The notes beneath the pieces are model-generated. The model did not search any database, was not told the origin of the DNA, and saw nothing but the letters and a program-made list of their open reading frames with translations. From assembly GCA_014728015.1 (NCBI GenBank), contig WJMI01000305.1, positions 6,192 through 70,191 of the forward strand: a stretch of 64,000 nt of DNA. The letters run 5' to 3'. The position numbers and the translations under genes were made by a program. The stretch comes from Chitinivibrionales bacterium. GTDB lineage: Bacteria; Fibrobacterota; Chitinivibrionia; Chitinivibrionales; WJMI01. Positions 32,327-62,626 of the stretch are shown one piece after another. Position 1 is the first letter of the stretch, and the number at the start of each line of letters is the position of its first letter.

Positions 32327-32336
32327 ATAGTACTAT
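32327..32336. promoter_or_regulatory. Perfect 10-bp palindrome ATAGTACTAT upstream of the PA14-GH63 gene (candidate operator)
   Basis: Self-complementary 10-mer 78 nt upstream of the ATG at 32414. It shares the ATAGTA/TACTAT half-site with the 50093-50114 palindrome. Confidence 0.3.
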
Positions 32337-34774: not shown

Positions 34775-34886
34775 GCGGCATCGGGGACCGCTTCGGCAAA
34801 CGCCGCCTGCATCGCGGCCTGGCGTATCACATGCAGGCGGAATGAGGAATTCTCCGCCTACGGCGCAGCAGAAGGGGGCCGACGCT

Positions 34887-42114: not shown

Positions 42115-42352
42115 GTATTTCCCTTTTGAGCTGGTTTCCGAGATTTGAAAGGGACGCATACCGGCGCCCGGCTCTTGTCTCTTACTGCCTTTCGCAAGGC
42201 TCCTGCGTGCAATATACAGTAAATAGAACGGAATAGTAGCACAATAATCAGAAGCAGGCCATCTATTTCTATAACTTCGCTCATGGGGAGGTTCAGGGCA
42301 TTCTGAATCAGCCGGTTCTTACAGGTCGATTAATACCGAAGGAGTCTCTTCC

Positions 42353-43540: not shown

Positions 43541-43561
43541 AAACCATAAGAGAGTTTTATC

Positions 43562-45481
43562 ATGAAATCGAAAAGCATACTTACAGCCGTTGTTGCGGCG
43601 CTTTGTCTGTGCTCCACCGCGCTGGCGGAGGAAATATTCACCGACTTCAACCGCAACGGGTACCGCGCATACGATGGTCTTCAGGTCGGGGACTGGCTCT
43701 ACGTTGACCTGAGCTACGGGGTTACCGATATGTGGAGCGGGTATGCCCCCGACAATTACATGTGCATCAAGACATATTTCTCCGACAAGTTTTACTGGGA
43801 CAAGGATTTTCTGATCTTCACCGTGCACCGCGATGTGACCGTGCTGATCGGCTGGCCGCAGGCCAGCAAGCACATGCCGGACTGGCTCCAGGACGGGTGG
43901 GTGGACAACGGCAAGCGAGGGGCTACAGGCTCATATACGCTCACATTCTACGAGAAGGAGTTCTCATCGGGTGATCGCGTGCAGCTCGGGGGCAATGAAG
44001 AGGCGTCGTTTATCATGTATACGATTCAGGTCGAGACCGGGCCGCACGATCCCGCGCCGTGGGTGCAGGAGAACGTGGTGCCCGACACATGGCTCGACGG
44101 CCTTCCGGAGCCGGTGCTGTCCGAGCATACGGGCTGGATAGATTTCTACTACTTCGCATGGGACATGGCCGACACCAAGAAGGTGCACCGTCCTCTGGGA
44201 TGGACTTTCGACGAGGCGCATGGGAGCGACGTGTCGTACCTGTGGGACTATGTCTGGATGACCTATTTCACCAAGTATGTGCAGGATGCCCATCCGCTCA
44301 TCACTGATTTCATGCTCGGTATCGACCAGATGTATGCCGACATGTATCCCGATGGATACGCGCCGTTCAAGTGGGGCTACCGCCGCGATCCGTTCTGGAC
44401 CCAGGCGCCCATTTTCCCCATGGCCGAATGGCAGTGCTACATTCACACGGCCGATACCGATCGTGTCAAACGGGTCCTTCCGTACCTCGAGAAGAACTTC
44501 TGGAATGTAAAGCGGTTCTGGGCAACGTACTGGGGGCCGCAGTATTTCGATGCCATGATCGGCAACGGCATGGACAATCGTCCCAACGGTGCGCGCATCA
44601 TCGATCTCACGGGGCAGCAGGCAATCAATGCCCTGATAATTTCGCGTCTTGCCGAGGCTGCCGGCGATACCGACCGAGAGTACAAGTTCAACAAGGAATA
44701 CAATTTCATCAAGGATGTTATCAACAATAAGATGTGGCATGACGGTGATAAGTTCTACACCGACATGAAGAACCGTACCGGCGACGAGCTGAAATCGGGT
44801 GACTGGACACTGGCATCCTACTGGCCGCTCATTGCTGAAGTTGCGCCGCAGGATCGTGTCGACCATATGGTGGCGCACCTCAACGATCCGGACAATTTCA
44901 AAACCGCGCATCGCCCGCCCTCAACCGGCAAGAAGAGCTGGGCCTACGATCCCGGAGGTAAGTACTGGCAGGGGAGTGTGTGGGTACCGACGGCCACCAT
45001 GGTGATCCACGGCCTGACCGCGTGCGGCGAGCATGATCTCGCGCGCGAGATCGCGGTCAATCACCACTACTACACCTACGAGACCTACCTGCAGACAGGC
45101 ACGATTCTCGAGAACTACTGGCAGGAAGGCGTGGGCAAGCCCACGGCCGGAAGCTCGATGACCGACTTCGTCGGCTGGAGCGGCATTACGCCGACCGGCA
45201 CGCTTATCGAATACGTGATCGGTATAAAGGTCAATGCACCCGAGAATACTGTCACCTGGCGCCTTCGGCTGACAGAACAGAACGGCATGCGAAACCTGAA
45301 ATGGGGTCCCGGCTTTGCGCATGTAATGGATCTGGTTGCTGACGCCAGAAGCAGTGAGAGCGACCCTGTGACTGTTAGAGCAAACAGCAATCATGCATTC
45401 AAACTTGTAGTTGATGCCGGCTTCAAAACAAAGACGTTTGATGTGGCAGCGGCCAATGATCAGGTATTCGTGGTTCAATAG
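43562..45481 (+). CDS. GH63-like (alpha/alpha)6-barrel glycoside hydrolase, no T9SS tail (copy 3)
   Basis: Collinear with 26125-28134: LPEPVLSEHTGWIDFYYFAWDMADTKKV, IDLTGQQAINALIISRL, KYWQGSVWVPTATMVIHGL, LENYWQ, FVGWSGITPTGTLIE. Confidence 0.7.
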   Translation: MKSKSILTAVVAALCLCSTALAEEIFTDFNRNGYRAYDGLQVGDWLYVDLSYGVTDMWSGYAPDNYMCIKTYFSDKFYWDKDFLIFTVHRDVTVLIGWPQASKHMPDWLQDGWVDNGKRGATGSYTLTFYEKEFSSGDRVQLGGNEEASFIMYTIQVETGPHDPAPWVQENVVPDTWLDGLPEPVLSEHTGWIDFYYFAWDMADTKKVHRPLGWTFDEAHGSDVSYLWDYVWMTYFTKYVQDAHPLITDFMLGIDQMYADMYPDGYAPFKWGYRRDPFWTQAPIFPMAEWQCYIHTADTDRVKRVLPYLEKNFWNVKRFWATYWGPQYFDAMIGNGMDNRPNGARIIDLTGQQAINALIISRLAEAAGDTDREYKFNKEYNFIKDVINNKMWHDGDKFYTDMKNRTGDELKSGDWTLASYWPLIAEVAPQDRVDHMVAHLNDPDNFKTAHRPPSTGKKSWAYDPGGKYWQGSVWVPTATMVIHGLTACGEHDLAREIAVNHHYYTYETYLQTGTILENYWQEGVGKPTAGSSMTDFVGWSGITPTGTLIEYVIGIKVNAPENTVTWRLRLTEQNGMRNLKWGPGFAHVMDLVADARSSESDPVTVRANSNHAFKLVVDAGFKTKTFDVAAANDQVFVVQ

Positions 45482-45737
45482 TCCTATGGACGATGAAGCT
45501 CGAAATTCAGAACATGATAGGGGCACGTGTGCGGATTGCGGATCGGGGAGCCGCACACGGGCCCTTCCATGTCTTTGAGCGGCAGCGACTTGTGTCCTAA
45601 TTGGCCGAGCAACAACAGCCACAACAACCTTCTGGAGACGTTCTACACAGATGTGGACCGATATATTGCTTTGAGAGGCATTTCACAATCTGCCTGCCGT
45701 CTTCTTGCGGCAAAATTATTGACCGGGGGGAACTCGT

Positions 45738-48386
45738 ATGAGACTGAATCTTTCCATACTGCTGACCGCTTTTGCCACAGTATCGACACTGTTGGCCGCC
45801 GAAGTTGTCATCAATCCGGGCGACGACTGGGGTGCGGCCATCTCCAACAACCCCGCCGGCACGGTATTCATTATCAAGGCCGGTATCCATCCTGACCCGG
45901 AAATCAGCGATGCCAAAAACGGCATGCAGTTCATCGGAGAGGACGGTGCCATTGCGCAGGGCGACACCAGCGGCATGTATTTCGCCACCGGCTACGGACC
46001 CAACGGCAAGATTGAAGATGTTGTTATCAAGAACATCGAGATTCGCGGCTATGGTCTTGACAGAGACGGCAACGTTGGGTATTGCGACGGCGGCCCGCTT
46101 TCGGTGCATGACAGCAAGAACTGGCTTCTCGAAGAACTCGAGGTCCATCACTGCGGCGGAACCGGGATTACCACCGGTGAAGGCACCATCGTCAGGAACT
46201 GCTGGGTGCATCATAATTTTCAGCAGGGATTCGGCGGCAAGTTCAGCGGCGCCACTGTCGAGGGGTGCGAGAACGGGTACAACAATGTTGTCATCGACGG
46301 CGTCGACAGCAACTACTGCGCGTGGGAGCATTCAGCCGGCGGCAGCAAGTGGGCCATCTGTTCCACCCTGGTGGTCAAGAATTGCTGGACTCACCATAAC
46401 TACGGGCCCGGCTGGTGGACCGATATCTCGAACGAGGACATCACCTATACCGGCTGTCTGGTCGAAGAGAACGTTTCCATGGGGATATTCCATGAAATAA
46501 GCGGCAACGCCACTATCAACTGTAATATCTCGCGCAACAACGGTATCGGTCCCAACTCAGGATCCAATTTTCAACTTCACGTAGTGTCTTCGGGTCCCAC
46601 GGAGTTATGGGGCAATATCATGGATGTGCATGCATCGGGCGGCGCCGGATACCAGGTGACCGAGAACGGCCGCGAGTACCTGGCCCAGGATGTCGATTTT
46701 CATCACAATATCATTGTATATCGCCATACCACCGGCCCGGCAGTCGGCATGGGCTGCCAGATAGGCGGCGGGTGCGATGCCGTGTACAACGACAACGCGC
46801 AAAACATCGATTTTCACGACAACACCTACTACGTTCCCGATGCCAGCGCCGAGCTCTGGCAGTGGGACGTGGGCGACTGCGTGGACTTCACTACCTTCAA
46901 GACATATCACAGTTTCGGGCGCGGCAGCGAGGTGATCGAAACCGGCGATTTTCCGGATATCGAGGATCTCGATTGCCCGACCGGGTGCGAGGACGTGCTC
47001 GCGCCTGAGATTATCCTGAGGAACCGGCGCATGCATTTCGAGATCGGCCAGGGCGGCAGCGCATCGCCGCAGGTCGTTTCGGTCGGCAACATGACCATGG
47101 GCACGCTTGCCGATGTGGAAACCGATATCTCGTACGTGAACGGCAGCGGATGGCTCAATGTCGCGCGAAGCGGCTCGGGAAACACCCAGAAACTGACTAA
47201 TACGATCGACGTTTCCGGCGTGAGCGCGGGAGACTACAGCGCCAAGGTGCGCGTGTCGGCATCGAATGCCGACTACGTTCCGTGGTACTGGGTGCATATG
47301 AAGGTGACCGGCGAATCACCGGCACTTACCTCGTTTGACATCGTTCCGTCAAACGCGGTCTGTTCTCCCGAACAGAGCATCAAATTCATCGCCACGGCCC
47401 TTGACCAGTGGGACAATCCCCTGGCCGATCAGCCGTCGGATATCTCATGGTCGGTGACCGGCGACGGGTCCGTATCGAACGGCACGTATACGGCGGGCAC
47501 GGAAATCGGCGCCCATACCCTGACCGTTTCATCGGGAGGTGTATCCACCGAGCAGCCGGTGCGCGTGCTTAAGGCCGACCCGCTGGACATGTCGGAGAAT
47601 ATCAAGGACTTTCTGGTGCTGTGCGCGCCGGGCGGCTCGCCCAAGCTGAATGTGAGCAATTACGCGGGATCGAGCACGCATGTCATGGACGATGAGCACC
47701 TCCTGACACCTGCGCCGGGCGACAAGGTGACGGTTGGCGGCACGGACTACACCTGGACAATCATGCACGACGATGACGGTCAGTGGCATGATGATGCCGG
47801 CGGCGGCGAGTGGATAGCGTACTTCGCGATAACGGTCTTGAGCACAAAGGACCAGTGGGTCAGGTATAATGTCAGGCACGCGGGCGGCATGCGGATCTAC
47901 TCGAACGGCCTGAAGGTGTACGGGTATAATTCGTGGGACAATCGCCGGGCTGTCGCGAGCGATCCCGCGCTGCTCGAGCGGGGCGCCAACCAGGTCATAT
48001 TCAAGCTGGCAAGCAATACGTACCCCCGGTTCTCCGCGCACATTGATGATGCCCAATCCGGCGGGCTTCTCACCGATCTGTACTACACGCTCGACGATGC
48101 CGCGGGCGGCGACCTGACAATCAGCGGGCCGATGCTCAGCCGCGCGATGCGTCCCCTGGGCATCAGTGTCCGGCGGAGCGCCGGCAGGTATGTTCTCGAT
48201 GTCGCGGGCGTGGAAGGGTCTCACGAAGTGCGCGTGCTGAGTCTCAATGGACGGACCGTGTTCGTGCGACGCGGCATGGGTGAAGCGGCCTACATGATCC
48301 CGCGGAGCAAAATGGCATCCAGCGTATACGTGGTGTCGGTCAGGGCCGGCGAAAAGGTCCTGCGCAAGCGGTTCATCGGTTACTGA
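45738..48386 (+). CDS. Secreted beta-helix protein type 2 with Big_2, beta-sandwich and T9SS C-terminal domains (copy 2)
   Basis: Collinear with 28199-30943: FIGEDGAIAQGD, NIEIRGY, KNCWTHHNYGPGWWTDISNEDITYTGCLVEENVSMGIFHEISGNATINCNISRNNG. Tail: VLSLNGRTVFVRR...SSVYVVSVRAGEKVLRKRFIGY. SD: GGGGGGAACTCGT. Confidence 0.7.
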   Translation: MRLNLSILLTAFATVSTLLAAEVVINPGDDWGAAISNNPAGTVFIIKAGIHPDPEISDAKNGMQFIGEDGAIAQGDTSGMYFATGYGPNGKIEDVVIKNIEIRGYGLDRDGNVGYCDGGPLSVHDSKNWLLEELEVHHCGGTGITTGEGTIVRNCWVHHNFQQGFGGKFSGATVEGCENGYNNVVIDGVDSNYCAWEHSAGGSKWAICSTLVVKNCWTHHNYGPGWWTDISNEDITYTGCLVEENVSMGIFHEISGNATINCNISRNNGIGPNSGSNFQLHVVSSGPTELWGNIMDVHASGGAGYQVTENGREYLAQDVDFHHNIIVYRHTTGPAVGMGCQIGGGCDAVYNDNAQNIDFHDNTYYVPDASAELWQWDVGDCVDFTTFKTYHSFGRGSEVIETGDFPDIEDLDCPTGCEDVLAPEIILRNRRMHFEIGQGGSASPQVVSVGNMTMGTLADVETDISYVNGSGWLNVARSGSGNTQKLTNTIDVSGVSAGDYSAKVRVSASNADYVPWYWVHMKVTGESPALTSFDIVPSNAVCSPEQSIKFIATALDQWDNPLADQPSDISWSVTGDGSVSNGTYTAGTEIGAHTLTVSSGGVSTEQPVRVLKADPLDMSENIKDFLVLCAPGGSPKLNVSNYAGSSTHVMDDEHLLTPAPGDKVTVGGTDYTWTIMHDDDGQWHDDAGGGEWIAYFAITVLSTKDQWVRYNVRHAGGMRIYSNGLKVYGYNSWDNRRAVASDPALLERGANQVIFKLASNTYPRFSAHIDDAQSGGLLTDLYYTLDDAAGGDLTISGPMLSRAMRPLGISVRRSAGRYVLDVAGVEGSHEVRVLSLNGRTVFVRRGMGEAAYMIPRSKMASSVYVVSVRAGEKVLRKRFIGY

Positions 48387-48442
48387 AAACGAGCACTAAC
48401 GCTACCCCGCCCGGCCGGCCGAAGCCGCGGGGCCCTCAGCAT

Positions 48443-48480
48443 TGATTTGTCCCGGAGATTATTTACTAGTTTACCTCCGG
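48443..48480 (+). repeat. Exact 38-bp repeat, copy 1 (TGATTTGTCCCGGAGATTATTTACTAGTTTACCTCCGG)
   Basis: Identical to 53928-53965 in the same orientation. It contains the CCGGAG-N17-CTCCGG inverted repeat. Lies between the stop of 45738-48386 and the stop of the regulator 48502-50061. Confidence 0.9.
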
Positions 48481-48501
48481 AGTAAATATGGAGTACGACA
48501 G

Positions 48502-50061
48502 TTACAAGCGTGCTACACCGGCAATGGAGCCGCGGTCTATCAATTCCGGAACCGTGGCGATATTCCCCCGCCGGTCCGCCCGGATCGGGATGTCGCCCAC
48601 AAAAATGTGCGCCGCCTTATAGGCAATATCCTCGAGCTTCTGATCCACGGTAGTGACCGGCTCCCTGCTGAAATAGAGGTAGTTGTCGAACGCGACAAGC
48701 GACAGGTCCTTCGGTACTGCAATGCCCACATTTTTCAGCCAGTAGAGGTAGTTCACCGCAGCCCACTGGTTGGCGGCGATGAGAGCAGTCGCGCGGTTTG
48801 GTTTCAACAGGGGTGTCAGCGAGGGAACCGTGCGGGCGAGTTCCTGAGACAGGAGTTTTTCCCGGCGCGCGCGTGTTGCTTTCGGGTGTGCCGCCCGAAT
48901 AGATTCCCGAATCGAATCCACGTGATTGAACATGGGGTTGATGCCCATGTAGTCGTAGAGAAGGTTGTATTCGGGTTCTCTGCCGATAAGCCACAGGCGC
49001 TCGTTGTGTTCCCACACGGTCAAATCAAGGCGTGCCTGGCGGCACAGGTCGGCAATCAGCTCGCGGCGGTTTATCAACCAGTCTTCCCGGGCAAACCTGT
49101 TGGGAACAATCAACGCGGCGCTCCGGTGCCCTCGGTCCGCCAATGCTGATACTGCGAGTCTCACCAAGGCGCGCTCTTCACTGTAGCACCGGAAGAACGC
49201 CCGGCGGCCGACTGTCCTGCGGTCGAGATGCGGCAGGCGGTTTTCGATGTCGAGAAATACCACCGGCCTGTCGAACTGGCCCAGCCACGAGACCCAGTCA
49301 CGCATGTCGTCCAAATCCTTTTGGTGGACCACGACAAACGTACCCCGGTATCGATCGCCCAGCTTCTGGATTGTTTTCAGGATGTCGGCCCGTCCCGCCG
49401 CGAAGAAATCTCGGCTGGTGGCCCGGCGATCCGCATGCACCACAGTCGGTGCCTGAGCGATTTCCTTCTGCACCACCAGGTACTCGTGACCGAATCGTTT
49501 GAGCTCGGTACAGAAGGTGGAGATCATGAGATTGGAGTGCATGGTAAACAGGTCACGCCAGAAATCATATCCCTGCACCAGAATGAGAACGACCGGCTTT
49601 TCTTCTCGGGCCTTGTATCCAGGAGCGGGCGCCGCGGGCTGGGGACCCACAGCCCATCTTTTGCCCTGCCGGTGAATAAGACCTTCTGAAGAGAGAATCG
49701 ACATGGCCCGGCTCACAGTGCTGCCGGAGACATGATCGGTCAGGATGTAGTGGAGCTGCTTGGGGAGCGTGTCGCCCGCCCGAAGAATGCCATCGTCAAT
49801 TTTGTCCCTGACATTTCTGGCAAACCGTCCTGCCGAAGTATGATCGGAGAAGCTTTCACCAGGGATATCGAGCCGTACAGGCCTCCGCCTGTTGCGCAGT
49901 TTCACCAGGCCGCGACTCGACAGGATCCGCAGAGCCGCAACGGCGGTGTTCTTGGCCACTTCGGATTCGCGGACGATTTCACGCACAGATGGCACAGGCA
50001 AACCGGGATTGGCGCGGAGTGTTTCTTCGATTGTGGCGGCAATACGCTCTGCAAGCGGCAC
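48502..50061 (-). CDS. Transcriptional regulator, paralog 4: tandem GntR-type wHTH x2 plus LacI/PBP1-like sensor
   Basis: wHTH1: VPSVREIVRESEVAKNTAVAALRILSSRGLVKLRNRR. wHTH2: LPKQLHYILTDHVSGSTVSRAMSILSSEGLIHRQGKRWAVG. C-terminus: AANQWAAVNYLYWLKNVGIAVPKDLSLVAFDNY. GTG start preceded by AGGAGA. Confidence 0.75.
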   Translation of the reverse strand: MPLAERIAATIEETLRANPGLPVPSVREIVRESEVAKNTAVAALRILSSRGLVKLRNRRRPVRLDIPGESFSDHTSAGRFARNVRDKIDDGILRAGDTLPKQLHYILTDHVSGSTVSRAMSILSSEGLIHRQGKRWAVGPQPAAPAPGYKAREEKPVVLILVQGYDFWRDLFTMHSNLMISTFCTELKRFGHEYLVVQKEIAQAPTVVHADRRATSRDFFAAGRADILKTIQKLGDRYRGTFVVVHQKDLDDMRDWVSWLGQFDRPVVFLDIENRLPHLDRRTVGRRAFFRCYSEERALVRLAVSALADRGHRSAALIVPNRFAREDWLINRRELIADLCRQARLDLTVWEHNERLWLIGREPEYNLLYDYMGINPMFNHVDSIRESIRAAHPKATRARREKLLSQELARTVPSLTPLLKPNRATALIAANQWAAVNYLYWLKNVGIAVPKDLSLVAFDNYLYFSREPVTTVDQKLEDIAYKAAHIFVGDIPIRADRRGNIATVPELIDRGSIAGVARL

Positions 50062-50092
50062 GGGGACTCTCCTGTGTAGTACAGAAGGACTG

Positions 50093-50114
50093 AATAGTAT
50101 TATAATGTACTATT
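50093..50114. promoter_or_regulatory. 22-bp palindrome AATAGTA-N8-TACTATT containing overlapping TATAAT boxes on both strands (candidate divergent promoter plus operator)
   Basis: AATAGTATTATAATGTACTATT. TATAAT sits on the plus strand at 50101-50106 and on the minus strand at 50099-50104. It lies in the 140-bp gap between regulator 48502-50061 (minus) and the beta-helix gene 50202-51746 (plus). Confidence 0.45.
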
Positions 50115-50201
50115 TCAAGACTCCTTCTGCACATACTTTCTGCGCAAGTGGCACAGCCGATAGCCAAAGCATTTGGACAGCACAGATTGAAAGGTCGTGT
50201 A

Positions 50202-51746
50202 ATGCGCATACGACTCAATTTCGCCGCGTTGTCAATACTGCTCGTCGTGTCAGGTATCTTGGCAAGGGACACTGTGTATCTCTATCCTGGCAATCCGTTT
50301 CGCGATTCGGTTCAGGCATATCCCGAGAGCACAACGTTCATTGTCAAGGAAGGCACCCATTACCAGCCCCGCATATGGCCAAAGACCGGTGATCATTTCA
50401 TCGGGGAGGACGGTGCTGTCATGGATGGTGGAGACACCGCCTATCATGCGATAGTCGGCAACCAGACCGTCGATGACATTGTCATCCGTAATATCCGGTT
50501 CCTCAACTACGGCTCCGCTCCGCGGCTGTGTGTTATCACTGCCCGGGCCGATGCGTACAACGGCGCCCGCTGGACCATTGAAAACTGCGAGTTTGGATAC
50601 TGCAACGGCGGTGCCATCATGATAGGCGACAGTTTCGAGGTTCGCGGCAATTACATACATCACATGGGCCAGATTGGGCTTCTGGGGGGCGCAACCGGCT
50701 CGCTGGTCGAGAACAACGAGATTGCTTTCTGCAACTATGAAATGGAGAACTCGTTCATTTTCGAGGCAGGGGGCGCGAAATTTGCGTATGCGACCAATCT
50801 GATCGTACGCGGTAACTATGTCCACGACAATTTCGGCCCTGGTTTGTGGACCGATATCGACAACATGAATATCCTGTACGAGGGCAATATCATCGAGGAC
50901 AACCTGCAGTTCGGCATCTTTCACGAAATCAGCTATGATGCAGTCATCCGATGCAATGTGATTCGTAACAACGGTGCGGCGCATGACTCACTCGTGTGGT
51001 GGATGAAGCCCGGGCAGATAAAGATCGCCAACTCCCAAAACACCGAAATCTGTCATAATATCATCGAAGTGCATCCGAGCTTTGGCGATGGGATTGCCTT
51101 GTCAAATGCGGTTCGCGGAGAAGACTGGTACTGCAGAGATAATAGCGTGCACCACAACCATATCATCCACAAGGGAAAAAACGCGTCGTACAGCGGCATC
51201 AACGGCGTGGAGTCCGAATGGCACGAGGAGTTCGAGAACCTGTATACCCAGGCCGATAACCGGTTCGATGCCAACTATTATCATGTGCCTGATGACACCA
51301 CCCGCTACTGGTTCTGGCGCGGGACACGCTGGGACCATACGGGCAACGGGTTTCGCACATTCGAGGAATTCCAGGCGATGGGCCAGGAGCAACACGGCAT
51401 TATTGACCACGACACGGGCGGCAGTTACGCCTGCGCGCCGTGCCAGGACCTCGTTGACCGGATAGAAACGGCGCGCAAGATTTGCCCGGGAAGGATCGCG
51501 CAGCAGGGTTTGCGTGTCGGCGCGACCGCGCGGGACGGAAACTGTGTTGTTAAAATAACCGGCAACTGCGCGCCGCCGGTCGAAATCTGCATTCACGATG
51601 CCCGGGGAAGGCGCGTATCGCGAATTCTTGTCGGCCATGAGGTACAACGCATCGTGGTTCCGACATCATCTTTGGGCCGGGGCATGTACCTGGTCCGCGC
51701 GCATGCATCGGGAATGACTGCTGTCACCACGTTCGTGGTGCGGTAA
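50202..51746 (+). CDS. Secreted beta-helix protein type 2, minimal form (catalytic core plus T9SS C-terminal domain; copy 3)
   Basis: FIGEDGAVMDGGD, NIRFLNY, VRGNYIHHMGQIG, VRGNYVHDNFGPGLWTDIDNMNILYEGNIIEDNLQFGIFHEISYDAVIRCNVIRNNG. Tail: IHDARGRRVSRIL...GRGMYLVRAHASGMTAVTTFVVR. Start at the ATG at 50202. Confidence 0.7.
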   Translation: MRIRLNFAALSILLVVSGILARDTVYLYPGNPFRDSVQAYPESTTFIVKEGTHYQPRIWPKTGDHFIGEDGAVMDGGDTAYHAIVGNQTVDDIVIRNIRFLNYGSAPRLCVITARADAYNGARWTIENCEFGYCNGGAIMIGDSFEVRGNYIHHMGQIGLLGGATGSLVENNEIAFCNYEMENSFIFEAGGAKFAYATNLIVRGNYVHDNFGPGLWTDIDNMNILYEGNIIEDNLQFGIFHEISYDAVIRCNVIRNNGAAHDSLVWWMKPGQIKIANSQNTEICHNIIEVHPSFGDGIALSNAVRGEDWYCRDNSVHHNHIIHKGKNASYSGINGVESEWHEEFENLYTQADNRFDANYYHVPDDTTRYWFWRGTRWDHTGNGFRTFEEFQAMGQEQHGIIDHDTGGSYACAPCQDLVDRIETARKICPGRIAQQGLRVGATARDGNCVVKITGNCAPPVEICIHDARGRRVSRILVGHEVQRIVVPTSSLGRGMYLVRAHASGMTAVTTFVVR

Positions 51747-51781
51747 TACCAAACAAGCAACGGCCGTTCAGGGAGGACGCA

Positions 51782-53803
51782 ATGTACTGGACAGGCAACG
51801 CACTGGTATTGACAGCTCTTGCGCTTTTCTGGCTCGCGTGGGGAGCACAGGGGCTGGAAGGTATGCTCTTGGGATATTATCCCGACACCGATCAGGACGG
51901 CGTTGTCGATACCAATGCCTGCCCCGGCTATATCAGCCAGGAGAACGCGGGGGCGTTGTTCGTGTATTTCCTGGGCACGGGACACAAGGTGTATGTCGAG
52001 GAGGACGGCGTTCTCAGCGGTAGTTTTTCCCCCGACGGCAGCCGGATTGCATACCAGAAAGCGAACCAGGTGTGGGTATGCGACGTTGACGGGAACAACA
52101 GGCAGGCGGTGACAGCGTGCGGCACCGGCGATGCGGTCACCTGGGGAAGCGACTACATTTACTGGAGCGAGTTGACCAGTGCTGTGTACCAGGTCAAGGA
52201 GGACGGCAGCGAGCGGGGCGTGCTCCACGATTTCGGCCAAACCGTGTACAAGGCCGGCGTTTCGCAGGATGGCACCCATGTGTCGGGGTTTGCCATGCCC
52301 GGCCCCTGGATAATTGCGTGGGACAGCGCCACGAATACGACATCGAATGTGGCCTGCTGCAATTTCGGCGGGGGGTGCCGGGGGACATTTTCCCCTGACG
52401 GGTCGATGGTTACGCGTAACCGGTCGAACCACAACGACTGGGACATCATCGCCTATTCGCCCGGCGATCCTATCAACGGGTGGCCCGGCATCCAGCACAT
52501 CGATAACATCAATTGGGAGCCGTGCGCCGGCCGTACGGACGGCAAGGCGACATTCAACATGCATCGCTTTTCGACCAAGTCGAATGATTTCGTTGTGTTA
52601 ACGGGCGAAGGGGCCAACAGCGCATACGTATACCAGCTGTCCACACGGCAGTTTCACTATATCTGCCGCGGCATCGCGCTCGATTTCTGTCCGTTTTCCC
52701 CGTTCAACTCCGTTCCTGCGCCCGCCTTTGCGCCGCAGCAGGGGACTTTTGCCGATGCGATTGATGTGACGATTACCGGGACCGGCACGATTCGCTATAC
52801 CACCGATGCCAGCGATCCGACTGACATGTCGCTGCCGTACGCCGGGCCTGTTCATCTGACTGCAACCACCACGATCAAGGCGCGGTGTTTCAGCGGTGAT
52901 GACCAAAGCTCTATCGCATCGAAGACCTATACCAAAGCCGCTGCCGGCGCGCAATTGACTGCTATCCAGCTTGCGCCCGCGACAATGGATGTGGCAGGCG
53001 GCGGGCGGGTGCATTATACAGCAACCGCACTCGATCAGAATGGCGCGGAAATGCAGGATGTGTCTTTCACGTGGAGTGTCGATGGCGGGGGGACTATTGA
53101 TACCGCCGGTCTGCTGAAGGCCGGTATGATGGAAGGCGGTCCGTATACGGTACGTGTCTCTTCGGGCGGGGTTCACGCATCCGCGACATTCTCGGTGCAG
53201 GGCACTATCTGTCTTATTGAGCCGCAGGCGGCCGCACGCTATCGCGAGGGTGACACGATGCATGTCCGCTGGGAATGGACCGGCGCGGATACATATCCCG
53301 GCGGCGTGGTGGTGAGCTTCTCAAATGACGGCGGCTTGAGCCTGCACGATATCACGGGGACCAACAGCATTGCTTCCGGCGATGCGGCCTGGGGAGATCT
53401 GACCTGGGTGATAGGCCAGGGGCTTCCCGATGGTGTGTCCGTGCAAACACAAAAAGGTGTTGTGCAAATCGGCCGGTATGCCGCAACCGGCCTTGCATGG
53501 AACGGAACCACAAGCGAGCCGTTCACAGTACTGGCCAAGGATGCCGCAACGATCCCCTCCCCGCCCAGCAAATCCAGCCGCGCGGCCATACGAGCGGTTC
53601 GTGATGCGTTGCTGGTGACGATACCCTATCGAGGCTATTTGGAAATCGAGGTGAATGATACAAGGGGTCGTCGGGTCTTTTGCGAGGCCGTACGAGGCGC
53701 GGGAACGCGGCGCATTGAGAAGCGGTTGGCCCCGGGCGCATGGATGGTGTGTGTGCGCATCGACGGCCGATGCCTGACGAGCGCGCTCATAACCGCGCGA
53801 TAG
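51782..53803 (+). CDS. Secreted TolB/PD40-like propeller / CHB_HEX_C-like / Big_2 protein with T9SS C-terminal domain (propeller family P, copy 3)
   Basis: GSFSPDGSRIAYQKANQVWVCDVDGNNRQAVT. CHB_HEX_C-like: FAPQQGTFADAIDVTITGTGTIRYTTDASDPT...TTIKARCF. Big_2-like: TATALDQNGAEMQDVSFTWSV. Tail: IEVNDTRGRRVFCE...PGAWMVCVRIDGRCLTSALITAR. Confidence 0.55.
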   Translation: MYWTGNALVLTALALFWLAWGAQGLEGMLLGYYPDTDQDGVVDTNACPGYISQENAGALFVYFLGTGHKVYVEEDGVLSGSFSPDGSRIAYQKANQVWVCDVDGNNRQAVTACGTGDAVTWGSDYIYWSELTSAVYQVKEDGSERGVLHDFGQTVYKAGVSQDGTHVSGFAMPGPWIIAWDSATNTTSNVACCNFGGGCRGTFSPDGSMVTRNRSNHNDWDIIAYSPGDPINGWPGIQHIDNINWEPCAGRTDGKATFNMHRFSTKSNDFVVLTGEGANSAYVYQLSTRQFHYICRGIALDFCPFSPFNSVPAPAFAPQQGTFADAIDVTITGTGTIRYTTDASDPTDMSLPYAGPVHLTATTTIKARCFSGDDQSSIASKTYTKAAAGAQLTAIQLAPATMDVAGGGRVHYTATALDQNGAEMQDVSFTWSVDGGGTIDTAGLLKAGMMEGGPYTVRVSSGGVHASATFSVQGTICLIEPQAAARYREGDTMHVRWEWTGADTYPGGVVVSFSNDGGLSLHDITGTNSIASGDAAWGDLTWVIGQGLPDGVSVQTQKGVVQIGRYAATGLAWNGTTSEPFTVLAKDAATIPSPPSKSSRAAIRAVRDALLVTIPYRGYLEIEVNDTRGRRVFCEAVRGAGTRRIEKRLAPGAWMVCVRIDGRCLTSALITAR

Positions 53804-53927
53804 GTGCAGCCCAACGCCGACCTCAAATGAATACAGTATCTCCGGCGTCAATAACCTGATTGTCCCCCGGTGATTCCCCAGGGCAGTTTGCCGTCTCCAG
53901 CGAACTGCGGAAACGGGCCGAAACTAC

Positions 53928-53965
53928 TGATTTGTCCCGGAGATTATTTACTAGTTTACCTCCGG
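53928..53965 (+). repeat. Exact 38-bp repeat, copy 2
   Basis: Identical to 48443-48480. A degenerate partial copy (CTGATTGTCCCCCGGTGATT) lies 70 nt upstream at 53856-53875. Confidence 0.9.
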
Positions 53966-54210
53966 TTTAAATTCCCGCCCCAAAAAAATAGGACTTCTCT
54001 GAAGTTCCATACTCCGCCCGACTCCATGAGAAAATTGTATAATTCGATCAGAGGATCATATCTGCTTGATACGCCCGAATCCCAGTATATTGGGTTCTTG
54101 GGGAGACCGGTATTGACAAGAATTTCTCCGACAGGGGGTGCTTCGGAGTAACAACTGAAATAGCAACATAAGTTATGCGCTTAAATCGCGAGGTAAGAAG
54201 GGGGAACTTC

Positions 54211-56934
54211 ATGACCAAGTCGAACAGCGCTATATTTCTCATTTCAGTGCTTGCATTGAATATGGCGGCATCGGGTGGCTTGTGCCGTCGTGCTTCGTCG
54301 TTTCCGCAAAATGTTGTTCAGAAGTGGCAGGAGCAGTACAGCGACATTGATGGGCAGATTGCCGCCACGAACAGCCTGGGCAAAAGACGTGACAATGCTT
54401 TCGGCAAAATGGCAAGCCGGCATGCGCTGGTCCTTGCCGGGGATCGCGATCCCGCCGATGTAGTCCTTCGCCGCACCGGGGCCCTCATGGAGAGCCTCAA
54501 GCGCCTTGAGGACTGTCCTGATCTTTCGGCGTTTGAATCCCGCCTCGAGCAGCTCCGCAGTCAGAACCGCGGCGGTCTCGCCAAGGCTTCGGCGGCCGCG
54601 CGTGAGGCATTGTACCTCGAGGCATGCGCCCTTCGGCGGCAGATTGCCATCTCCAATCCGCTCCTCGATTTCAACGATGTGCTGTATGTCGAGCGGGCGC
54701 TGTGCGGCAACTGGGAAGAGACAGGCCATCACTGCTGCGACCAGTTCCACAATTTCACCAATGCGCCGGGCGGATGGGTGTACATCATGAAAGATGCGTT
54801 CAGTGACAATCCCCAGCGCGCAAACCTTCTTCAAAACGCGGTCGTCGAAAACGGGCAGTTTGAGGGGCAGAGGCTGGTCGACCTGACAGGCAAGTGCCTG
54901 AGCCCGGAGCTGTCCTTTGACGGCCAGACCGTGCTGTTCGCATTTGCGGAGGGCGGCTGCAAGAACAACAATCACATCAAATTCGGGCTGCCGCCGCACG
55001 AGCATTTCTGGAATGACCAGAACTGCTGGCACATTTTCAAAATCAACATTGACGGCACCGGTCTGCGTCAGTTGACATTCGGCCCGTATGACGATTTCGA
55101 CCCGTGTTTTCTTCCCAACGGCCGCATCACGTTCATATCAAACCGTCGCGAAGGGTATGGCCGCTGCCACTTCCGTCTGGTGCCTACCTATACCCTGTAT
55201 TCCATGAAAGACGACGGCAGTGATATCATCTGCCTGAGCTTCCATGAAACCAACGAGTGGCATCCCTCGGTGAACAACGACGGCATGATTGTGTATACGA
55301 GATGGGATTATATCGATCGCCCGGATTTGGCCTCGCACCATATCTGGACCTGTTACCCTGACGGGCGCGATCCGCGGGCCCCGCACGGCAACTACCCCGA
55401 GCCGTATGCCACGCATGTCGACGGCGGGTGGGGTGACACGTTCCGGAAACGGCCCAATGGGGAATACAATATCAAGGCCATTCCCGGGACCGCGAGCAAG
55501 TATACGGCTACCGCCGGACCGCACCACGGCGAGTCGTACGGATGTCCTGTCATACTCGATATTGCTATCGAAGATGACAATTGTATGTCGCAGATCACCA
55601 AGATAGTCGACGTTGGTTTTCCCGAATCGGAAGTGGGGGGAACGGTCGGCGGAAGCTACGGGACCGTTTGGCCGTTGTCCGAAGAGTTTTTCCTGTGCAA
55701 CAGGGACGGCGGGCTGGCGCTTCTGGACATTCACGGTAATGTAGAATACTTCGGCGGCGGCCATACCATGCGGCCGGTCGATCCTATTCCGGTCAAGGCG
55801 CGCACCAAGCCGCCCGTCATACCCGTGCAGACCTGGCAGGGGGAACGGGAAGGCGCTCCGGACCACCAGCGCGCCGTCATCAGCGTCATGAATATCAATG
55901 TCGCCGATTACCCGCTTCCGGACAATGCGGAGATCACACACATGCGCATCATCCAGGCCTTTCCGCATTCGCAGCCGTTCAGTGTGTATGCGGGACATGG
56001 GGAGCACTCGCAGGGGCGCATGCCGATTGGCACGGTGCCGGTCGAGGAAGACGGGAGCGTGTATTGCGAAGCGCCGGTGGGCAAACAGATATACTTCCAG
56101 CTTCTGGATGAAAAAGGCCATGCGATCGCATCCATGCGTTCCGGCACGTATGTGCATCCCGGCGAGCATCTGACGTGCGTTGGCTGTCACGAAAGCAAGT
56201 GGGAATCACCTCCGCCCATGACATCGACCCCGCTTGCGCTCCGCCGCGAGCCGTCGCCTATTGAGCCCGAAGTCGGTGGCGTGAATCCGATCGGGTTCGA
56301 CCTGGTCCAGCCGATTATTCAGAGCAAGCTTTCGGGAACGTTTTCCTCAAACTATCATGATCTGGAGCCCATAATATTCTATCTCGAAAGCGGCATCTAC
56401 TGGATGCAGTACCAGCACGGCGGGTCGCGCACGATCCCGGGTCGTTTCGGCGCCCTCGAATCCGGCATGCTTAAGACGATAAACGGCATGAACCACAATC
56501 TCACCGACGAGGAATACCGCAAGATTGTGCTGTGGCTCGACTGTAATTCCAACGAGTTCGGTCTGGCACGCAACGGGGGCTATCACCCGCAGGCCTATCT
56601 TATGGACTACGACGAGAATAATCCCTCGGGAGTCGAGTATGACCGGCCCGCGCGCGGCTCAACGACCATCAAGCTCCAGCGCTTCGCGCCATCCGGGGAA
56701 CCGCATATTCGAGTAACAAACCGAATGCTCACGGTGAACAGCGGAGCGAATGAAGGGGCGGATCTGGCGGTCTACGATCTGAGCGGGCGCGTGGTGTTGC
56801 GGCGCCGGCTGGGACACGGTACCTCTTGCATCGATCTCGGGGCGCAGGGAGTTGCCGCGGGAAGCTACGTGGTCAGGCTTACGGATGCCAAGCAGCGGAC
56901 CCTGCAAAGCAGGCGGATTGTTGCGGCGCGTTAG
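54211..56934 (+). CDS. HzsA-related / PD40-like beta-propeller protein with one CxxCH motif and a T9SS C-terminal domain (paralog 2)
   Basis: Collinear with 2292-5177: DFDPCFLPNGRITF, HETNEWHPSVNNDGMIVYTRWDY, VPVEEDGSVYCEAPVGKQIYFQLLDEKG, LTCVGCHESKWESPPP. Tail: LAVYDLSGRVVLRRR...AAGSYVVRLTDAKQRTLQSRRIVAAR. Start at the ATG at 54211, after GAAGGGGGAACTTC. Confidence 0.65.
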   Translation: MTKSNSAIFLISVLALNMAASGGLCRRASSFPQNVVQKWQEQYSDIDGQIAATNSLGKRRDNAFGKMASRHALVLAGDRDPADVVLRRTGALMESLKRLEDCPDLSAFESRLEQLRSQNRGGLAKASAAAREALYLEACALRRQIAISNPLLDFNDVLYVERALCGNWEETGHHCCDQFHNFTNAPGGWVYIMKDAFSDNPQRANLLQNAVVENGQFEGQRLVDLTGKCLSPELSFDGQTVLFAFAEGGCKNNNHIKFGLPPHEHFWNDQNCWHIFKINIDGTGLRQLTFGPYDDFDPCFLPNGRITFISNRREGYGRCHFRLVPTYTLYSMKDDGSDIICLSFHETNEWHPSVNNDGMIVYTRWDYIDRPDLASHHIWTCYPDGRDPRAPHGNYPEPYATHVDGGWGDTFRKRPNGEYNIKAIPGTASKYTATAGPHHGESYGCPVILDIAIEDDNCMSQITKIVDVGFPESEVGGTVGGSYGTVWPLSEEFFLCNRDGGLALLDIHGNVEYFGGGHTMRPVDPIPVKARTKPPVIPVQTWQGEREGAPDHQRAVISVMNINVADYPLPDNAEITHMRIIQAFPHSQPFSVYAGHGEHSQGRMPIGTVPVEEDGSVYCEAPVGKQIYFQLLDEKGHAIASMRSGTYVHPGEHLTCVGCHESKWESPPPMTSTPLALRREPSPIEPEVGGVNPIGFDLVQPIIQSKLSGTFSSNYHDLEPIIFYLESGIYWMQYQHGGSRTIPGRFGALESGMLKTINGMNHNLTDEEYRKIVLWLDCNSNEFGLARNGGYHPQAYLMDYDENNPSGVEYDRPARGSTTIKLQRFAPSGEPHIRVTNRMLTVNSGANEGADLAVYDLSGRVVLRRRLGHGTSCIDLGAQGVAAGSYVVRLTDAKQRTLQSRRIVAAR

Positions 56935-57076
56935 GTTGTGACTGCAAAACACTGCCGGGCTTTGCAGCCGGGGAAACCTGACCGGCGGATTGAACCTGCG
57001 TGCCGGTAATTGCCTGCATGCGCGTTTTCCTCTTTCTTCCAGGCGCGAGAAAATGCTCCATTTTAAGGAGAAGATT

Positions 57077-57130
57077 ATGACTCTGGGTGAAGCTGCCCCT
57101 TATGTATTATGGAGACAGAGGGAACCATGA
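57077..57130 (+). CDS. Candidate 17-codon small ORF with strong SD
   Basis: My own reading: TAAGGAGAAGATT-ATG, encoding MTLGEAAPYVLWRQREP. Its stop overlaps the next ATG (ATGA at 57127-57130). Too short for the ORF track. Confidence 0.25.
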   Translation: MTLGEAAPYVLWRQREP

Positions 57131-57249
57131 AGCATGGCATGATTTCGCCCGTCGAGTTTAACCGGTTAAGATGCCTCGTGAAATCATGCGTAATAGCCGC
57201 TGGGATTGATGGAAGCCGGGAACGATTGTACAATGAAGTGATCCCATAG
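57127..57249 (+). CDS. Candidate 40-codon small ORF, coupled to the preceding sORF
   Basis: MKHGMISPVEFNRLRCLVKSCVIAAGIDGSRERLYNEVIP. Ends 13 nt before the GTG of 57263-58057. Confidence 0.25.
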   Translation: MKHGMISPVEFNRLRCLVKSCVIAAGIDGSRERLYNEVIP

Positions 57250-57262
57250 GCTGGAGAGAACC

Positions 57263-58057
57263 GTGAAACTTCTCAAGACCGCCCCCCAAGCTCTGTGCAT
57301 GGCATTGGCTGCTGTGTCCTGCCTGCGGGCCGCCAACGCGGTGCAGGAGCTCAGGTTCTTCGATGCCGCCGGCAACATGCTCTTCAAGGTAGCCTACGAG
57401 TACGACAACAACGGAAACAACACCACGCGCACGGTCTATGACCGGGGCGACTATGTGCTGAAACGGATTACGTTTAACGCCGACACCAACCGCTATTTCG
57501 ATCCGTTCGACAACCTTCTGTTCCGCGCAGGCTACACTGCCGCCTCCGGCGGTGAGAGCTTCGCATTCCACGATCGCTACCAGAAAGGAAGCCTGGTGCA
57601 CAGCGGCTCGTATTCCGGGTCGCCGGGGAGTTATGAATTTTCCGATGCCGGCGGCGGCAAGACGCACAGCCTGAGCTACCAGTATGACAGTGACAACCGG
57701 ATAACGCAGATTGATGTCAAGGATGCCGGCGGCGCGCTCACGCACTATGTCATGGTATACTACGTGGGCGATCAGCCGATCCGCCATGCAGCAGGCCCGC
57801 GGGCGAGCATTTCCTCCCTGCGGGTAGCCGGCGATCGTGTGCGCATGGCCGTCTCGCTCACCGGCAAGCAGCGAGTGCAGGCGCAGTTTTTCGATGTTCT
57901 CGGCAAGCTTGTTCATACCGCCCTGGACAGGAACATGCCCGGCGGATATCACACCGCCAGTCTTTCGCCCGGGCCCGCGCAGAGCGTCGGCGTGTACCTG
58001 CTCCGGGTGACTGCCGGTGACGTGCGCGTGGTCAAGAAGGTGCAGGTCGTCAGATGA
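57263..58057 (+). CDS. Small secreted YD-repeat-like protein with T9SS C-terminal domain
   Basis: GTG start after GGAGAGAACC. Signal peptide: MKLLKTAPQALCMALAAVSCLRAANA. YD-like: YEYDNNGNNTTRTVYD and YQYDSDNRITQIDVKD. Tail: AQFFDVLGKLVHTA...SVGVYLLRVTAGDVRVVKKVQVVR. Confidence 0.6.
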   Translation: MKLLKTAPQALCMALAAVSCLRAANAVQELRFFDAAGNMLFKVAYEYDNNGNNTTRTVYDRGDYVLKRITFNADTNRYFDPFDNLLFRAGYTAASGGESFAFHDRYQKGSLVHSGSYSGSPGSYEFSDAGGGKTHSLSYQYDSDNRITQIDVKDAGGALTHYVMVYYVGDQPIRHAAGPRASISSLRVAGDRVRMAVSLTGKQRVQAQFFDVLGKLVHTALDRNMPGGYHTASLSPGPAQSVGVYLLRVTAGDVRVVKKVQVVR

Positions 58058-59949
58058 GCGCGGTCAAACAACGCCATATCACGAGCATTGCGGCCGCGTG
58101 TGTTGTGGCGCTGGGCGCGCTGCGAGTGACGGCCGAGGATGTCGATCCCGGGTTTGTCACCGAGCTTCTCTATCTGTTCGACGAACTTCCGGGCGTGAAC
58201 AAGTCGGAATATCTCTCGCCGGATGCGTTCGCGGTTTCGCCGGACGGGAAAACACTGTACGTTGCCGAGAAAACATCGCGGCAGGTGGCGTATGTGGATA
58301 TCGCAAGCGGCGAAGTCACCAATGAGGTGCTCTTTCCCAACGAGGTGACCGGCATTGCGGTTGCTCCCGACGGGGCCCGCCTGTATGTGACCTGTTCTTC
58401 CGGCAAGCGCCCGCAGGGCGTGGTATGTGTCGTGAATGCATCATCGGGCGCCATCGAGACCACCATTCTGGCCGGGCATTCGACACGCGAGCCGGTGGTC
58501 AGCCCTGACGGCGCCGAGCTGTATGTGTGCAACCGGTTCGACAATGAGGTCGCCGTTATCGACTTGGCATCGAACAGCGTGGCGGCGCGCATTCCCGTGG
58601 TGCGCGAGGCGACCGGCGCGGCGATCACCGACGACGGCTCGCGGCTGGTGGTCACCAACTACCTGCCGATCGGCAGGGCGGACCTTGACACGGTCCAGTG
58701 TCCGGTCAGTATTATCGATACCGACACGCGCGCCGTGGTAGCCAATGTTCTCCTTGCCAACGGCGCCCACAGCCTTCAGGACGTCGCCGTTTCGCCTAAA
58801 CGCGGCGACGGCAAGTACTATGCGTATGTCACGCATCCGATCGCGCGGTTCCAGATACCGCCCAACGAAATCCAGCGCGGGTGGATAACGTCGAACGCGC
58901 TCAGCGTTATCAACGTGACCGATGCCGAATATGTCAACGTCGTGCCGCTCGATGACAACCAGCGCGGCGTGGCCAATCCGTGGGGCATCGCGTGCACCGG
59001 TGACGGTGCCTCTATCGTGATCAGCCATGCGGGCAGTCACGATGCCGTGGTCATCGATGCCGACGATATGCACGCCAAACTCGATACCGCGACCCAGGAC
59101 CTGTCGTACAACCTTCTGTTCTCCCAGAGTTTCCGTACCCGGCTGGCGCTCGACGTGCTTGGTCCGCGGCCCGTGGCGATTGTCGGCACCACGGCCTATA
59201 TCGGCGGGTACTTCTCCGATGATATCCAGATTGTCGATCTGTCGTCCGGCACGCCGTCTACGAGCGGCAGCATCGCGCTGGGCCCTTCGAAGGAAATGGA
59301 CCAGATACGGTTCGGCGAGCTCCGGTTCTTTGATGCGCGGATATGTTTCCAGCGGTGGCAGAGCTGTCATTCGTGTCATCCCAACACGCGCACCGACATG
59401 CTCAACTGGGATTTGCTCAATGACGGTATCGGCAATCCGAAAAGCGACAAGAGCATGCTGCTCGCGCACATCACACCGCCGGCGATGATCTCCGGGGTAC
59501 GGGACAGCGCTGAGGTGGCCGTTCGCGCCGGGGTATTATATATCCTGTTTGCCGAACCGGTCGAAACGGATGCGCTGGCCATGGATGAATATCTCAAGTC
59601 TCTGCGGCCGGTGCCGAGCCCGTACCTGGTGAAAGGCATGATGAGCGATGCGGCGAAGCGGGGCAAGGGGTTGTTCTACGACAAGTTCCAGTGCCAGCAG
59701 TGTCATCCCGAGCCGCTGTACACCGATCTGCGGTTTCACAACGTGGGCACGCAGGGCCCGCTCGATACCGACGGCCGGAGCGAGTTCGATACGCCGACGC
59801 TTATCGAGAACTGGCGCACGGCGCCGTACCTGCATGACGGGCGCTACCCGGAAATGAAAGACGTGTATTCGCCCGGCAGGCACGGGCTGATTGTCAATGC
59901 CACGGACCAGGAGATACAGGACCTCGTTGAATTTGTCAACTCGCTGTAG
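58054..59949 (+). CDS. YVTN-type beta-propeller fused to a di-haem cytochrome c peroxidase (CCP/MauG family) domain
   Basis: Propeller: VSPDGKTLYVAE, VAPDGARLYVTC, VSPDGAELYVCNRFDNEVAVIDL. CCP: WQSCHSCHP and FQCQQCHPEPLYTD (two CxxCH), plus FDTPTLIENWRTAPYLHDG. ATGA overlap with the upstream gene. Confidence 0.85.
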   Translation: MSAVKQRHITSIAAACVVALGALRVTAEDVDPGFVTELLYLFDELPGVNKSEYLSPDAFAVSPDGKTLYVAEKTSRQVAYVDIASGEVTNEVLFPNEVTGIAVAPDGARLYVTCSSGKRPQGVVCVVNASSGAIETTILAGHSTREPVVSPDGAELYVCNRFDNEVAVIDLASNSVAARIPVVREATGAAITDDGSRLVVTNYLPIGRADLDTVQCPVSIIDTDTRAVVANVLLANGAHSLQDVAVSPKRGDGKYYAYVTHPIARFQIPPNEIQRGWITSNALSVINVTDAEYVNVVPLDDNQRGVANPWGIACTGDGASIVISHAGSHDAVVIDADDMHAKLDTATQDLSYNLLFSQSFRTRLALDVLGPRPVAIVGTTAYIGGYFSDDIQIVDLSSGTPSTSGSIALGPSKEMDQIRFGELRFFDARICFQRWQSCHSCHPNTRTDMLNWDLLNDGIGNPKSDKSMLLAHITPPAMISGVRDSAEVAVRAGVLYILFAEPVETDALAMDEYLKSLRPVPSPYLVKGMMSDAAKRGKGLFYDKFQCQQCHPEPLYTDLRFHNVGTQGPLDTDGRSEFDTPTLIENWRTAPYLHDGRYPEMKDVYSPGRHGLIVNATDQEIQDLVEFVNSL

Positions 59950-59958
59950 GAGCACGGC

Positions 59959-61308: not shown

Positions 61309-61354
61309 GTTATGCCCTCATGCGGGCAGTACGACGCGAAAGGACTGTCATACC

Positions 61355-62536: not shown

Positions 62537-62626
62537 GCCGCGCCGCGCTTGACTCTGCGGAGCGGGTTCACCTAGTTTACCAGTGATCCCTTTTCTCGCG
62601 CGTATCGCAGTGGGCAGGGCTGTCCG

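Follow-up and report, generated by a model that had tools for sequence, protein, structure and literature searches.

An exact 38-bp direct repeat around a three-gene segment of a Chitinivibrionales bacterium may be a REP-like intergenic element

We analysed a stretch of contig WJMI01000305.1 (81,035 bp, locus tags GF418_) from a Chitinivibrionales bacterium (64,000 nt, hereafter the window) in which a 38-bp sequence occurs twice in the same orientation, at 48443–48480 and 53928–53965, around three genes. The first gene encodes, on the minus strand, a regulator (48502–50061; NCBI MBD3393125.1 / MBD3396629.1) with a Peripla_BP_3 domain and a GntR-type winged helix that Pfam matches in two stretches. 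On the plus strand it is followed by genes for a right-handed beta-helix protein (50148–51746, alternative start at 50202) with Beta_helix and NosD domains, and for a propeller-like secreted protein (51782–53803) with CHB_HEX_C_1/Fn3_assoc domains. The repeats thus enclose the regulator, beta-helix and propeller genes named in the original prediction. Copy 1 lies in a 115-nt gap between convergent genes, 57 nt past the stop of the plus-strand gene at 45738–48386 and 22 nt past the stop of the regulator gene. Copy 2 lies in a gap of 371 nt, 125 nt past the stop of the propeller gene and 210 nt before the ATG at 54175 of an HZS_alpha-domain gene.

Both copies of the 38-mer, TGATTTGTCCCGGAGATTATTTACTAGTTTACCTCCGG, are on the plus strand and match each other with 0 mismatches. 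No third match was found on either strand of the window when up to three mismatches were allowed, and 100 dinucleotide-preserving shuffles yielded 0 matches. The earlier claims that these direct repeats are exact and that chance identity is negligible were therefore borne out: the repeat is real and statistically unambiguous. By length it ranks second among the exact repeats of the 64 kb. Because the neighbouring paralogues are ancient, with protein identities of only 32–46% and 20 nt as the longest exact DNA match inside the coding paralogues of the window, identity at 38 of 38 positions marks the repeat as young or homogenised.

The internal organisation of the 38-mer also agreed with what had been described, namely an inverted-repeat frame, CCGGAG-N17-CTCCGG, and a TTTAC-TAG-TTTAC direct repeat (TTTAC-N3-TTTAC); within the window, this frame and TTTACTAGTTTAC are each confined to the two copies. 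Immediately to the right is a mismatch of 2 nt (AG versus TT), after which TAAAT is again found in both copies. The extended block is therefore 45 nt long and identical at 43 of 45 positions, and identity is 86% when 58 nt are compared. To the left, the alignment has only GGGCC in common, 8 bases off, so that similarity ends abruptly on the left and near-abruptly on the right. As an extended element, copy 1 (48443–48487) can be drawn as an outer stem ATTTG/TAAAT, an internal loop TC/AG, an inner stem CCGGAG/CTCCGG and a 17-nt AT-rich loop, ATTATTTACTAGTTTAC, which forms an AT-rich island in a genome of 58% GC. Copy 2 (53928–53972) differs from it solely by the change of AG to TT, within the predicted internal loop. 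This two-tier hairpin, with stems of 5 and 6 bp, is modest: folded as DNA, the 45-mer reached −4.7 kcal/mol in copy 1 (z = −1.9) and −4.8 kcal/mol in copy 2 (z = −2.4).

Weaker resemblances elsewhere did not add further copies. A degenerate half-copy had been proposed at 53856–53875, and this part of the original prediction did not hold up, as its alignment needs two indels and scores no better than chance, since under three scoring schemes between 3 and 19 further 50-nt tiles from the window score at least as high. A match of 13 out of 14 positions at 10514–10527 and a 10-mer at 62572–62581 are within chance by estimate. The two copies have no small ORFs in common beyond the repeat itself.

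The plus-strand order of features is the same in both gaps: a stop codon, a GC-rich hairpin, 10–19 nt and then the repeat. Before copy 1, the hairpin CCCCGC...GCGGGG (48405–48432, plus strand) follows the stop of 45738–48386 and ends 10 nt before the repeat. Before copy 2, the hairpin GCAGTTTGC...GCGAACTGC (53883–53908, plus strand) follows the stop of 51782–53803 and ends 19 nt before the repeat. These two hairpins are unrelated in sequence.

Copy 2 lies at the 5′ boundary of a conserved operon. Its first gene (54175–56934, plus strand) encodes an HZS_alpha/PD40 protein, and the rest of the operon in the window encodes a 264-aa protein, a 631-aa cytochrome/propeller protein, a 449-aa protein, an L-PSP protein and ResB. 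The same order, HZS_alpha, a protein of ~270 aa, a cytochrome-c/beta-propeller protein, a protein of ~445 aa, L-PSP and ResB, is kept in loci from distant Fibrobacterota-type relatives (L001, L018 and L019), even though four of the downstream operon genes are only 24–46% identical to their counterparts there. The operon spans 54175–63739 here, 10001–19151 in L018 and L019, and 1588–8440 in L001, and CcsA is also found in L018. Copy 2 thus delimits this conserved unit on its 5′ side. The genes upstream of the operon differ between genomes. A beta-helix gene lies directly upstream of an HZS_alpha gene both in a paralogous locus of the window (5423–7711, then 2292–5177) and in L018. However, the upstream neighbours of the HZS_alpha homologues in L001 and L017–L019 are not orthologous, and no interrupted gene pair was demonstrated among them. 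An alignment of the gap at 5178–5422 with the reconstructed empty site scored 20, which is within the range of shuffles (17.5 ± 2.3). As a separate observation, the operon at 54175–63739 encodes an extracytoplasmic haem-protein system within a glycan-degradation neighbourhood.

The enclosed genes resemble the rest of the window in composition. Their GC content (0.55–0.60), GC content at third codon positions (GC3, 0.67–0.70) and relative synonymous codon usage distance (2.96–4.24) do not fall outside the range set by the other 30 genes. When every large ORF in the 64-kb window was scanned with Pfam, no integrase, transposase or relaxase emerged, which confirms the earlier remark that no integrase is present, and ARAGORN found 0 tRNA or tmRNA genes. 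As a whole, the region is a mosaic of glycan-related units, old paralogues whose proteins are ~24–50% identical, and includes four GntR winged helix plus Peripla_BP_3 regulators, three GH63-like genes, several beta-helix proteins and two HZS_alpha/PD40 proteins. Within this mosaic, the regulator at 48502–50061 has 34–36% amino acid identity to two full-length paralogues and 27% over the N-terminal ~150 aa to a fourth, and the beta-helix protein at 50148–51746 is 31–32% identical to those encoded at 45738–48386 and 28046–30943.

To look beyond the window, we queried several databases with the 38-mer core and partial patterns, and these match nothing related. The 23-nt core GAGATTATTTACTAGTTTACCTC had 0 exact matches in 185,579 species-representative genomes and 0 in JGI metagenome contigs. 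Four metagenome matches to the 19-nt loop plus closing pair were all to unrelated AT-rich DNA lacking the flanking stems. Viral contigs contained nine chance matches to the 17-nt loop, in phage DNA of ~30% GC, and 0 matches to the 18-nt left arm. Queries of the gaps with blastn, one against plasmids and the other against phages, returned GC-hairpin noise or nothing. The collections searched contained no close relative of this genome: for the flanking proteins, the best identities are ~45–48%. The loci of the distant relatives (10–23 kb each) contain no dispersed exact repeat above 18 nt.

A second copied element was found in the same window. Two 73-nt blocks that are 97% identical lie on the minus strand at 10525–10597 and 12720–12792, and the longest exact repeat of the window (47 nt) is inside them. 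Each comprises a small hairpin and a canonical intrinsic terminator with a GC stem of 11–12 bp and a run of seven T (−15.7 kcal/mol as DNA, z = −3.5). The blocks are located ~45 nt downstream of two tandem genes with 45% protein identity, and the sequences on both sides of the block are unrelated. A partial third copy of the hairpin is found at 10418–10450. The block resembles a terminator cassette that has been copied or gene-converted. Since it is sharply bounded and near-identical at gene ends, the genome carries copied short intergenic elements.

Given that both an insertion at this locus and the spread of a repeat require the 38-mer at two places, the most basic statement is that it is a repeated intergenic element. 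As the reading we consider most likely, with a probability of roughly 40%, we propose that the two 38-mers belong to a short, lineage-specific intergenic repeat resembling repetitive extragenic palindromes (REPs) and were recently copied or converted; both the mode of origin and the membership of a family are inferred. The two copies would then represent an AT-rich imperfect palindrome of ~45 bp, of the REP or miniature-palindromic class. Such elements would occupy gaps that end transcription units, as each copy here does just past a GC-rich hairpin after a plus-strand gene, and the perfect identity would stem from recent copying or gene conversion rather than from conservation since the ancient duplications of the paralogues. 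Because both copies are at unit borders, whole genes are enclosed between them, making the three-gene module a by-product of position and not a sign of movement. A REP-like family was the scenario that the original prediction had named as its own refutation, and it is the one we now rank first.

Several observations support a REP-like repeat. The copies are intergenic, in the same orientation and 3′ of plus-strand genes, with copy 1 between convergent genes; the only two differences of the 45-mer fall within the predicted internal loop; dispersed exact repeats longer than 18 nt are absent from the loci of the distant relatives; and the enclosed genes are native in composition, in a window that has no mobility gene or tRNA. 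Together, the small imperfect palindrome, the position past gene ends and the precedent of the 73-nt block suggest this type of element. Other observations weigh against it. There are just two copies in 64 kb with ~23 intergenic gaps, and the hairpin, whose inner stem has 6 bp and whose loop has 17 nt, is weak at ~−5 kcal/mol as DNA, unlike typical REPs. A REP-associated tyrosine transposase (RAYT, Y1 type) is absent from the window, and no related genome shows a family of the 38-mer among the 185,579 genomes and the JGI metagenomes that were queried for its 23-nt core. Moreover, the copies bracket a self-contained unit consisting of a regulator, a divergent promoter, two genes and a closing hairpin, and an insertion would look alike.

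An insertion is what the first alternative invokes. The repeats might be scars resembling the left and right attachment sites (attL and attR) of a 5,485-bp segment brought in by a site-specific recombination event at a core of 38 bp, comparable to integrase-less cis-mobilizable elements (CIMEs) and excisable by a recombinase encoded elsewhere. CIMEs retain attL and attR and by definition lack a recombinase, so integrase-less elements with both sites are a described class (PMC5704250). The exactness of the direct repeats, the abrupt left and near-abrupt right loss of similarity and a length of 38 bp, typical of an att core, would all be expected of such an element. So would the self-contained nature of the segment, whose removal would leave a residual site retaining its own hairpin and promoter-like sequences and would place a beta-helix gene next to the HZS_alpha operon, as in the locus at 5423–7711/2292–5177 and in L018. 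Nevertheless, the beta-helix genes upstream in these comparators are not orthologous to 45738–48386. Neither the segment nor the window contains an integrase, a transposase or a decayed mobility gene, which counts only against an autonomous element. There is also no tRNA or tmRNA target, and the repeats are purely intergenic rather than duplicates of gene ends. The three genes stay inside the window's range for GC, GC3 and codon usage, the 38-mer as read from its sequence has no recognisable core-type or XerC/D-type architecture, and no copy was found in viral contigs or in phage and plasmid records. The earlier suggestion of att-like scars therefore stands as far as direct repeats with no recombinase between them are concerned, as in CIMEs, but is not supported by a recombinase or tRNA in the window or by any compositional anomaly. 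We consider recombination at this site unlikely, and the present data do not favour it over a repeat family.

Similarly unlikely is a role as a protein-binding or promoter element, either as an operator of a local regulator of the GntR/periplasmic-binding-protein (PBP) type or as a minus-strand sigma-70-type promoter antisense to the 3′ ends of the upstream genes; conversion would in that case keep both copies identical. The AT-richness of the island ATTATTTACTAGTTTAC, against a genomic GC content of 58%, and the inverted-repeat frame with its TTTAC-N3-TTTAC direct repeat would be compatible with such a function. Both copies contain a 9/12 match on the minus strand (TTTACT/TTTAAA, 17 nt, AATAAT), and about −36 to +9 of that promoter would be covered by the conserved 45 bp. 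Copy 2 is also located ~70–120 nt upstream of the promoter-like sequences TGTATAAT (~54034) and CCCAGTATATT (~54080) of the conserved operon. Yet promoter-like matches in the region are at chance level (6 versus 4.0 ± 2.0 expected), copy 1 has no gene to drive on either strand of its convergent gap, and minus-strand transcripts would hit a GC-rich hairpin within ~25–50 nt. Binding sites also normally need less than identity at 38 of 38 positions. A shared binding site at the module borders, as had been proposed, accordingly suits copy 2, upstream of the conserved operon, but not copy 1, 22 nt past a stop codon in a convergent gap.

The gap between the divergent regulator and beta-helix genes (50062–50147) contains nested palindromes, CAGAAGGA..TCCTTCTG and AATAGTA..TACTATT, around TATAAT, and is likely to be the enclosed segment's own operator-promoter, unrelated to the 38-mer. 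This putative operator-promoter and the other palindromes of the ATAGTACTAT type in the window are unrelated to the repeat, which further argues against a local operator. When compared directly as a candidate operator of the GntR/PBP regulators, the 38-mer was rejected, as it has ACT|AGT instead of AGT|ACT and copy 1 is outside any promoter region. The ATAGTACTAT / AATAGTA..TACTATT palindromes themselves are found at 50062–50147, 32327–32336, 24600–24620, 14352–14366 and 42190–42225. With up to one mismatch there are 4 matches of the ATAGTACTAT type versus 0.34 expected, and 2 of the 4 are in gaps upstream of operons or between divergent regulators and operons. They are likely operators of the GntR/PBP regulators.

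Less likely again is that the 38-mer serves a recombinase acting in trans, which would shuffle self-regulated modules for glycan degradation that lack an integrase between Chitinivibrionia loci. By analogy, such shuffling would be a chromosomal, cassette-like counterpart of CIMEs and pdif modules for polysaccharide-utilisation genes. Known site layouts were not recognised in the repeat. A dif or pdif site was rejected, as two 11-bp arms around a 6–8-bp spacer are not visible in the 38-mer and there is no switch in GC skew. Layouts of attC and of IS200/IS605 ends were likewise rejected from the sequence of the 38-mer. The cumulative GC skew rises steadily across the window with minor local dips, from which we conclude that the window is not the chromosomal terminus.

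A transcribed RNA element seems very improbable, whether as a small RNA or as a 3′-UTR (untranslated region) hairpin or terminator belonging to the plus-strand genes upstream. Both copies follow the 3′ ends of plus-strand genes and have the sense orientation, the sole variable dinucleotide is in the internal loop of the two-tier hairpin, and bona fide terminators of the window also have large loops (14 nt), all of which would be consistent with a function in RNA. However, the plus-strand folds in RNA context are not more stable than shuffles (z = +0.65 and −1.35), and the stem precedes a U-tract in neither copy, being followed by AGTAAAT or TTTAAAT instead. Little read-through is expected, because a stronger hairpin stands before each copy, and two identical copies offer no covariation to test. 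Rfam 15 returned nothing relevant for the window at the gathering threshold or for 48300–54300 at E ≤ 10, apart from a chance in-gene match to NiCo; the repeat itself had no match at either level. With a stability no greater than that of shuffles, no U-tract and no Rfam match, the conserved RNA hairpin of the original prediction is disfavoured. As a candidate intrinsic terminator the element was rejected, having a 6-bp stem, a 17-nt loop and no U-tract, and it was not called by a terminator consensus scan.

Least plausible is an assembly artefact, that is, a chimeric join at a shared k-mer: the source is a metagenome-assembled genome (MAG) and 38 equals k−1 for k = 39, a value used by some de Bruijn assemblers, but such a join needs a shared 38-mer that is present in the reads, final k values are normally far larger, composition is continuous over both junctions, and the regulator and HZS_alpha proteins each appear under two NCBI accessions whose numbers differ by 3 in both sets, indicating the same gene spacing in two MAG records.

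The other paralogous units of the window provide the background to the enclosed genes. Regulator paralogues of ~500 aa are encoded at 694–2295 (plus), 14595–16073 (plus), 40588–42159 (minus) and 48502–50061 (minus), and Pfam reported two matched GntR stretches in three of the four. An exhaustive search with a profile hidden Markov model (HMM) recovered 385 representatives of this family at E ≤ 1e-30, so this is a real, if sparsely annotated, family. Two word-index protein searches for relatives of the regulator returned the query alone, and a protein-pattern scan of genome contigs confirmed none. A three-gene unit is duplicated at 24810–30943 and 42353–48386, encoding a Por_Secre_tail protein of ~400 aa, a GH63/MGH1-like hydrolase and a large beta-helix protein with 38–50% protein identity between the copies; here a glycan-degradation unit expanded in tandem long ago. 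A third GH63-like gene is located at 32414–34774. An alpha-galactosidase (Melibiase_2, Melibiase_C and Por_Secre_tail) is split across overlapping plus-strand frames at 34842–35357 and 35305–35883, and is either a frameshifted pseudogene or the result of a MAG sequencing error.

Further motifs were found in the intergenic gaps of the window. Several operons are preceded, in the correct orientation, by the motif CCCCTATATT, at 5259–5268 (minus), 7785–7794 (minus), 14194–14203 (minus) and 24658–24667 (plus), with variants at 12260–12269 (minus), ~54078–54090 and ~45655–45668. There are 8 matches to it with up to one mismatch, versus 3.2 expected. It is a candidate for this organism's −10-type promoter signature; a −35 element is not evident. 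An exact 15-mer, GGACAGAGAGGACAG, is common to two gaps (5318–5332 and 14381–14395), which also have in common repeat tracts rich in CAGAG/CTCTG (5342–5370 and 14535–14570) that form an inverted repeat at 5343–5424; the 15-mer and these tracts are possibly a further regulatory motif. Another inverted repeat, at 12360–12413, has 25-nt arms, GGGACGGAGTTATA...TATAACTCCGTCCC, around an AT-rich centre and is located in a 643-nt gap. Motifs related to it, GGGGACGGAC and GTCCGTCCCC, are found in gaps at ~24174, 24259, 32296, 38511 and 38592.

What the repeat means for the locus depends on which explanation is correct. If it is a lineage-specific repeat family, it would be of practical value as a marker of transcription-unit borders in the poorly known Fibrobacterota class Chitinivibrionia. 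If it is a true recombination site, it would show that regulated sets of carbohydrate-active genes are exchanged as modules with no integrase resident in them, and would bear on how polysaccharide-utilisation loci diversify. The 38-bp direct repeats could also allow the 5.5-kb segment to be deleted or duplicated on rare occasions. Overall, we consider the feature to be probably of an ordinary kind, a short intergenic repeat, in an unusual and poorly sampled lineage.

Comparison with known systems places the repeat as follows. Xer-dependent modules, such as integrative mobile elements exploiting Xer (IMEX) and the pdif modules of Acinetobacter, likewise lack an integrase, measure a few kb and have short specific sites at their ends. 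Unlike these sites, the 38-mer as read from its sequence has no 11-6-11 arrangement of XerC and XerD half-sites and no ATAA/TTAT inner ends. The pdif modules are bounded by inversely oriented sites. With the attL and attR of CIMEs, the locus has in common identical direct repeats of att-core length around a self-contained, recombinase-free gene set (PMC5704250), but it differs in that neither a tRNA nor a gene end serves as target, decayed mobility genes are absent, and base composition and codon usage are native. The 73-nt block of the same window is, like the 38-mer, a discrete, near-identical intergenic element with sharp edges downstream of genes; it has a strong stem and a T-run, whereas the 38-mer has neither, and the two have no sequence in common. 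From REPs and bacterial interspersed mosaic elements (BIMEs), the repeat differs in having two known copies here, a weak stem, a 17-nt AT-rich loop, no GTAG-type 5′ tetranucleotide and no RAYT in the window. What it shares with them is a short (~45 bp) imperfect palindrome, a strictly intergenic location 3′ of genes or between convergent genes, and near-identical, sharp-edged copies beside highly diverged genes.

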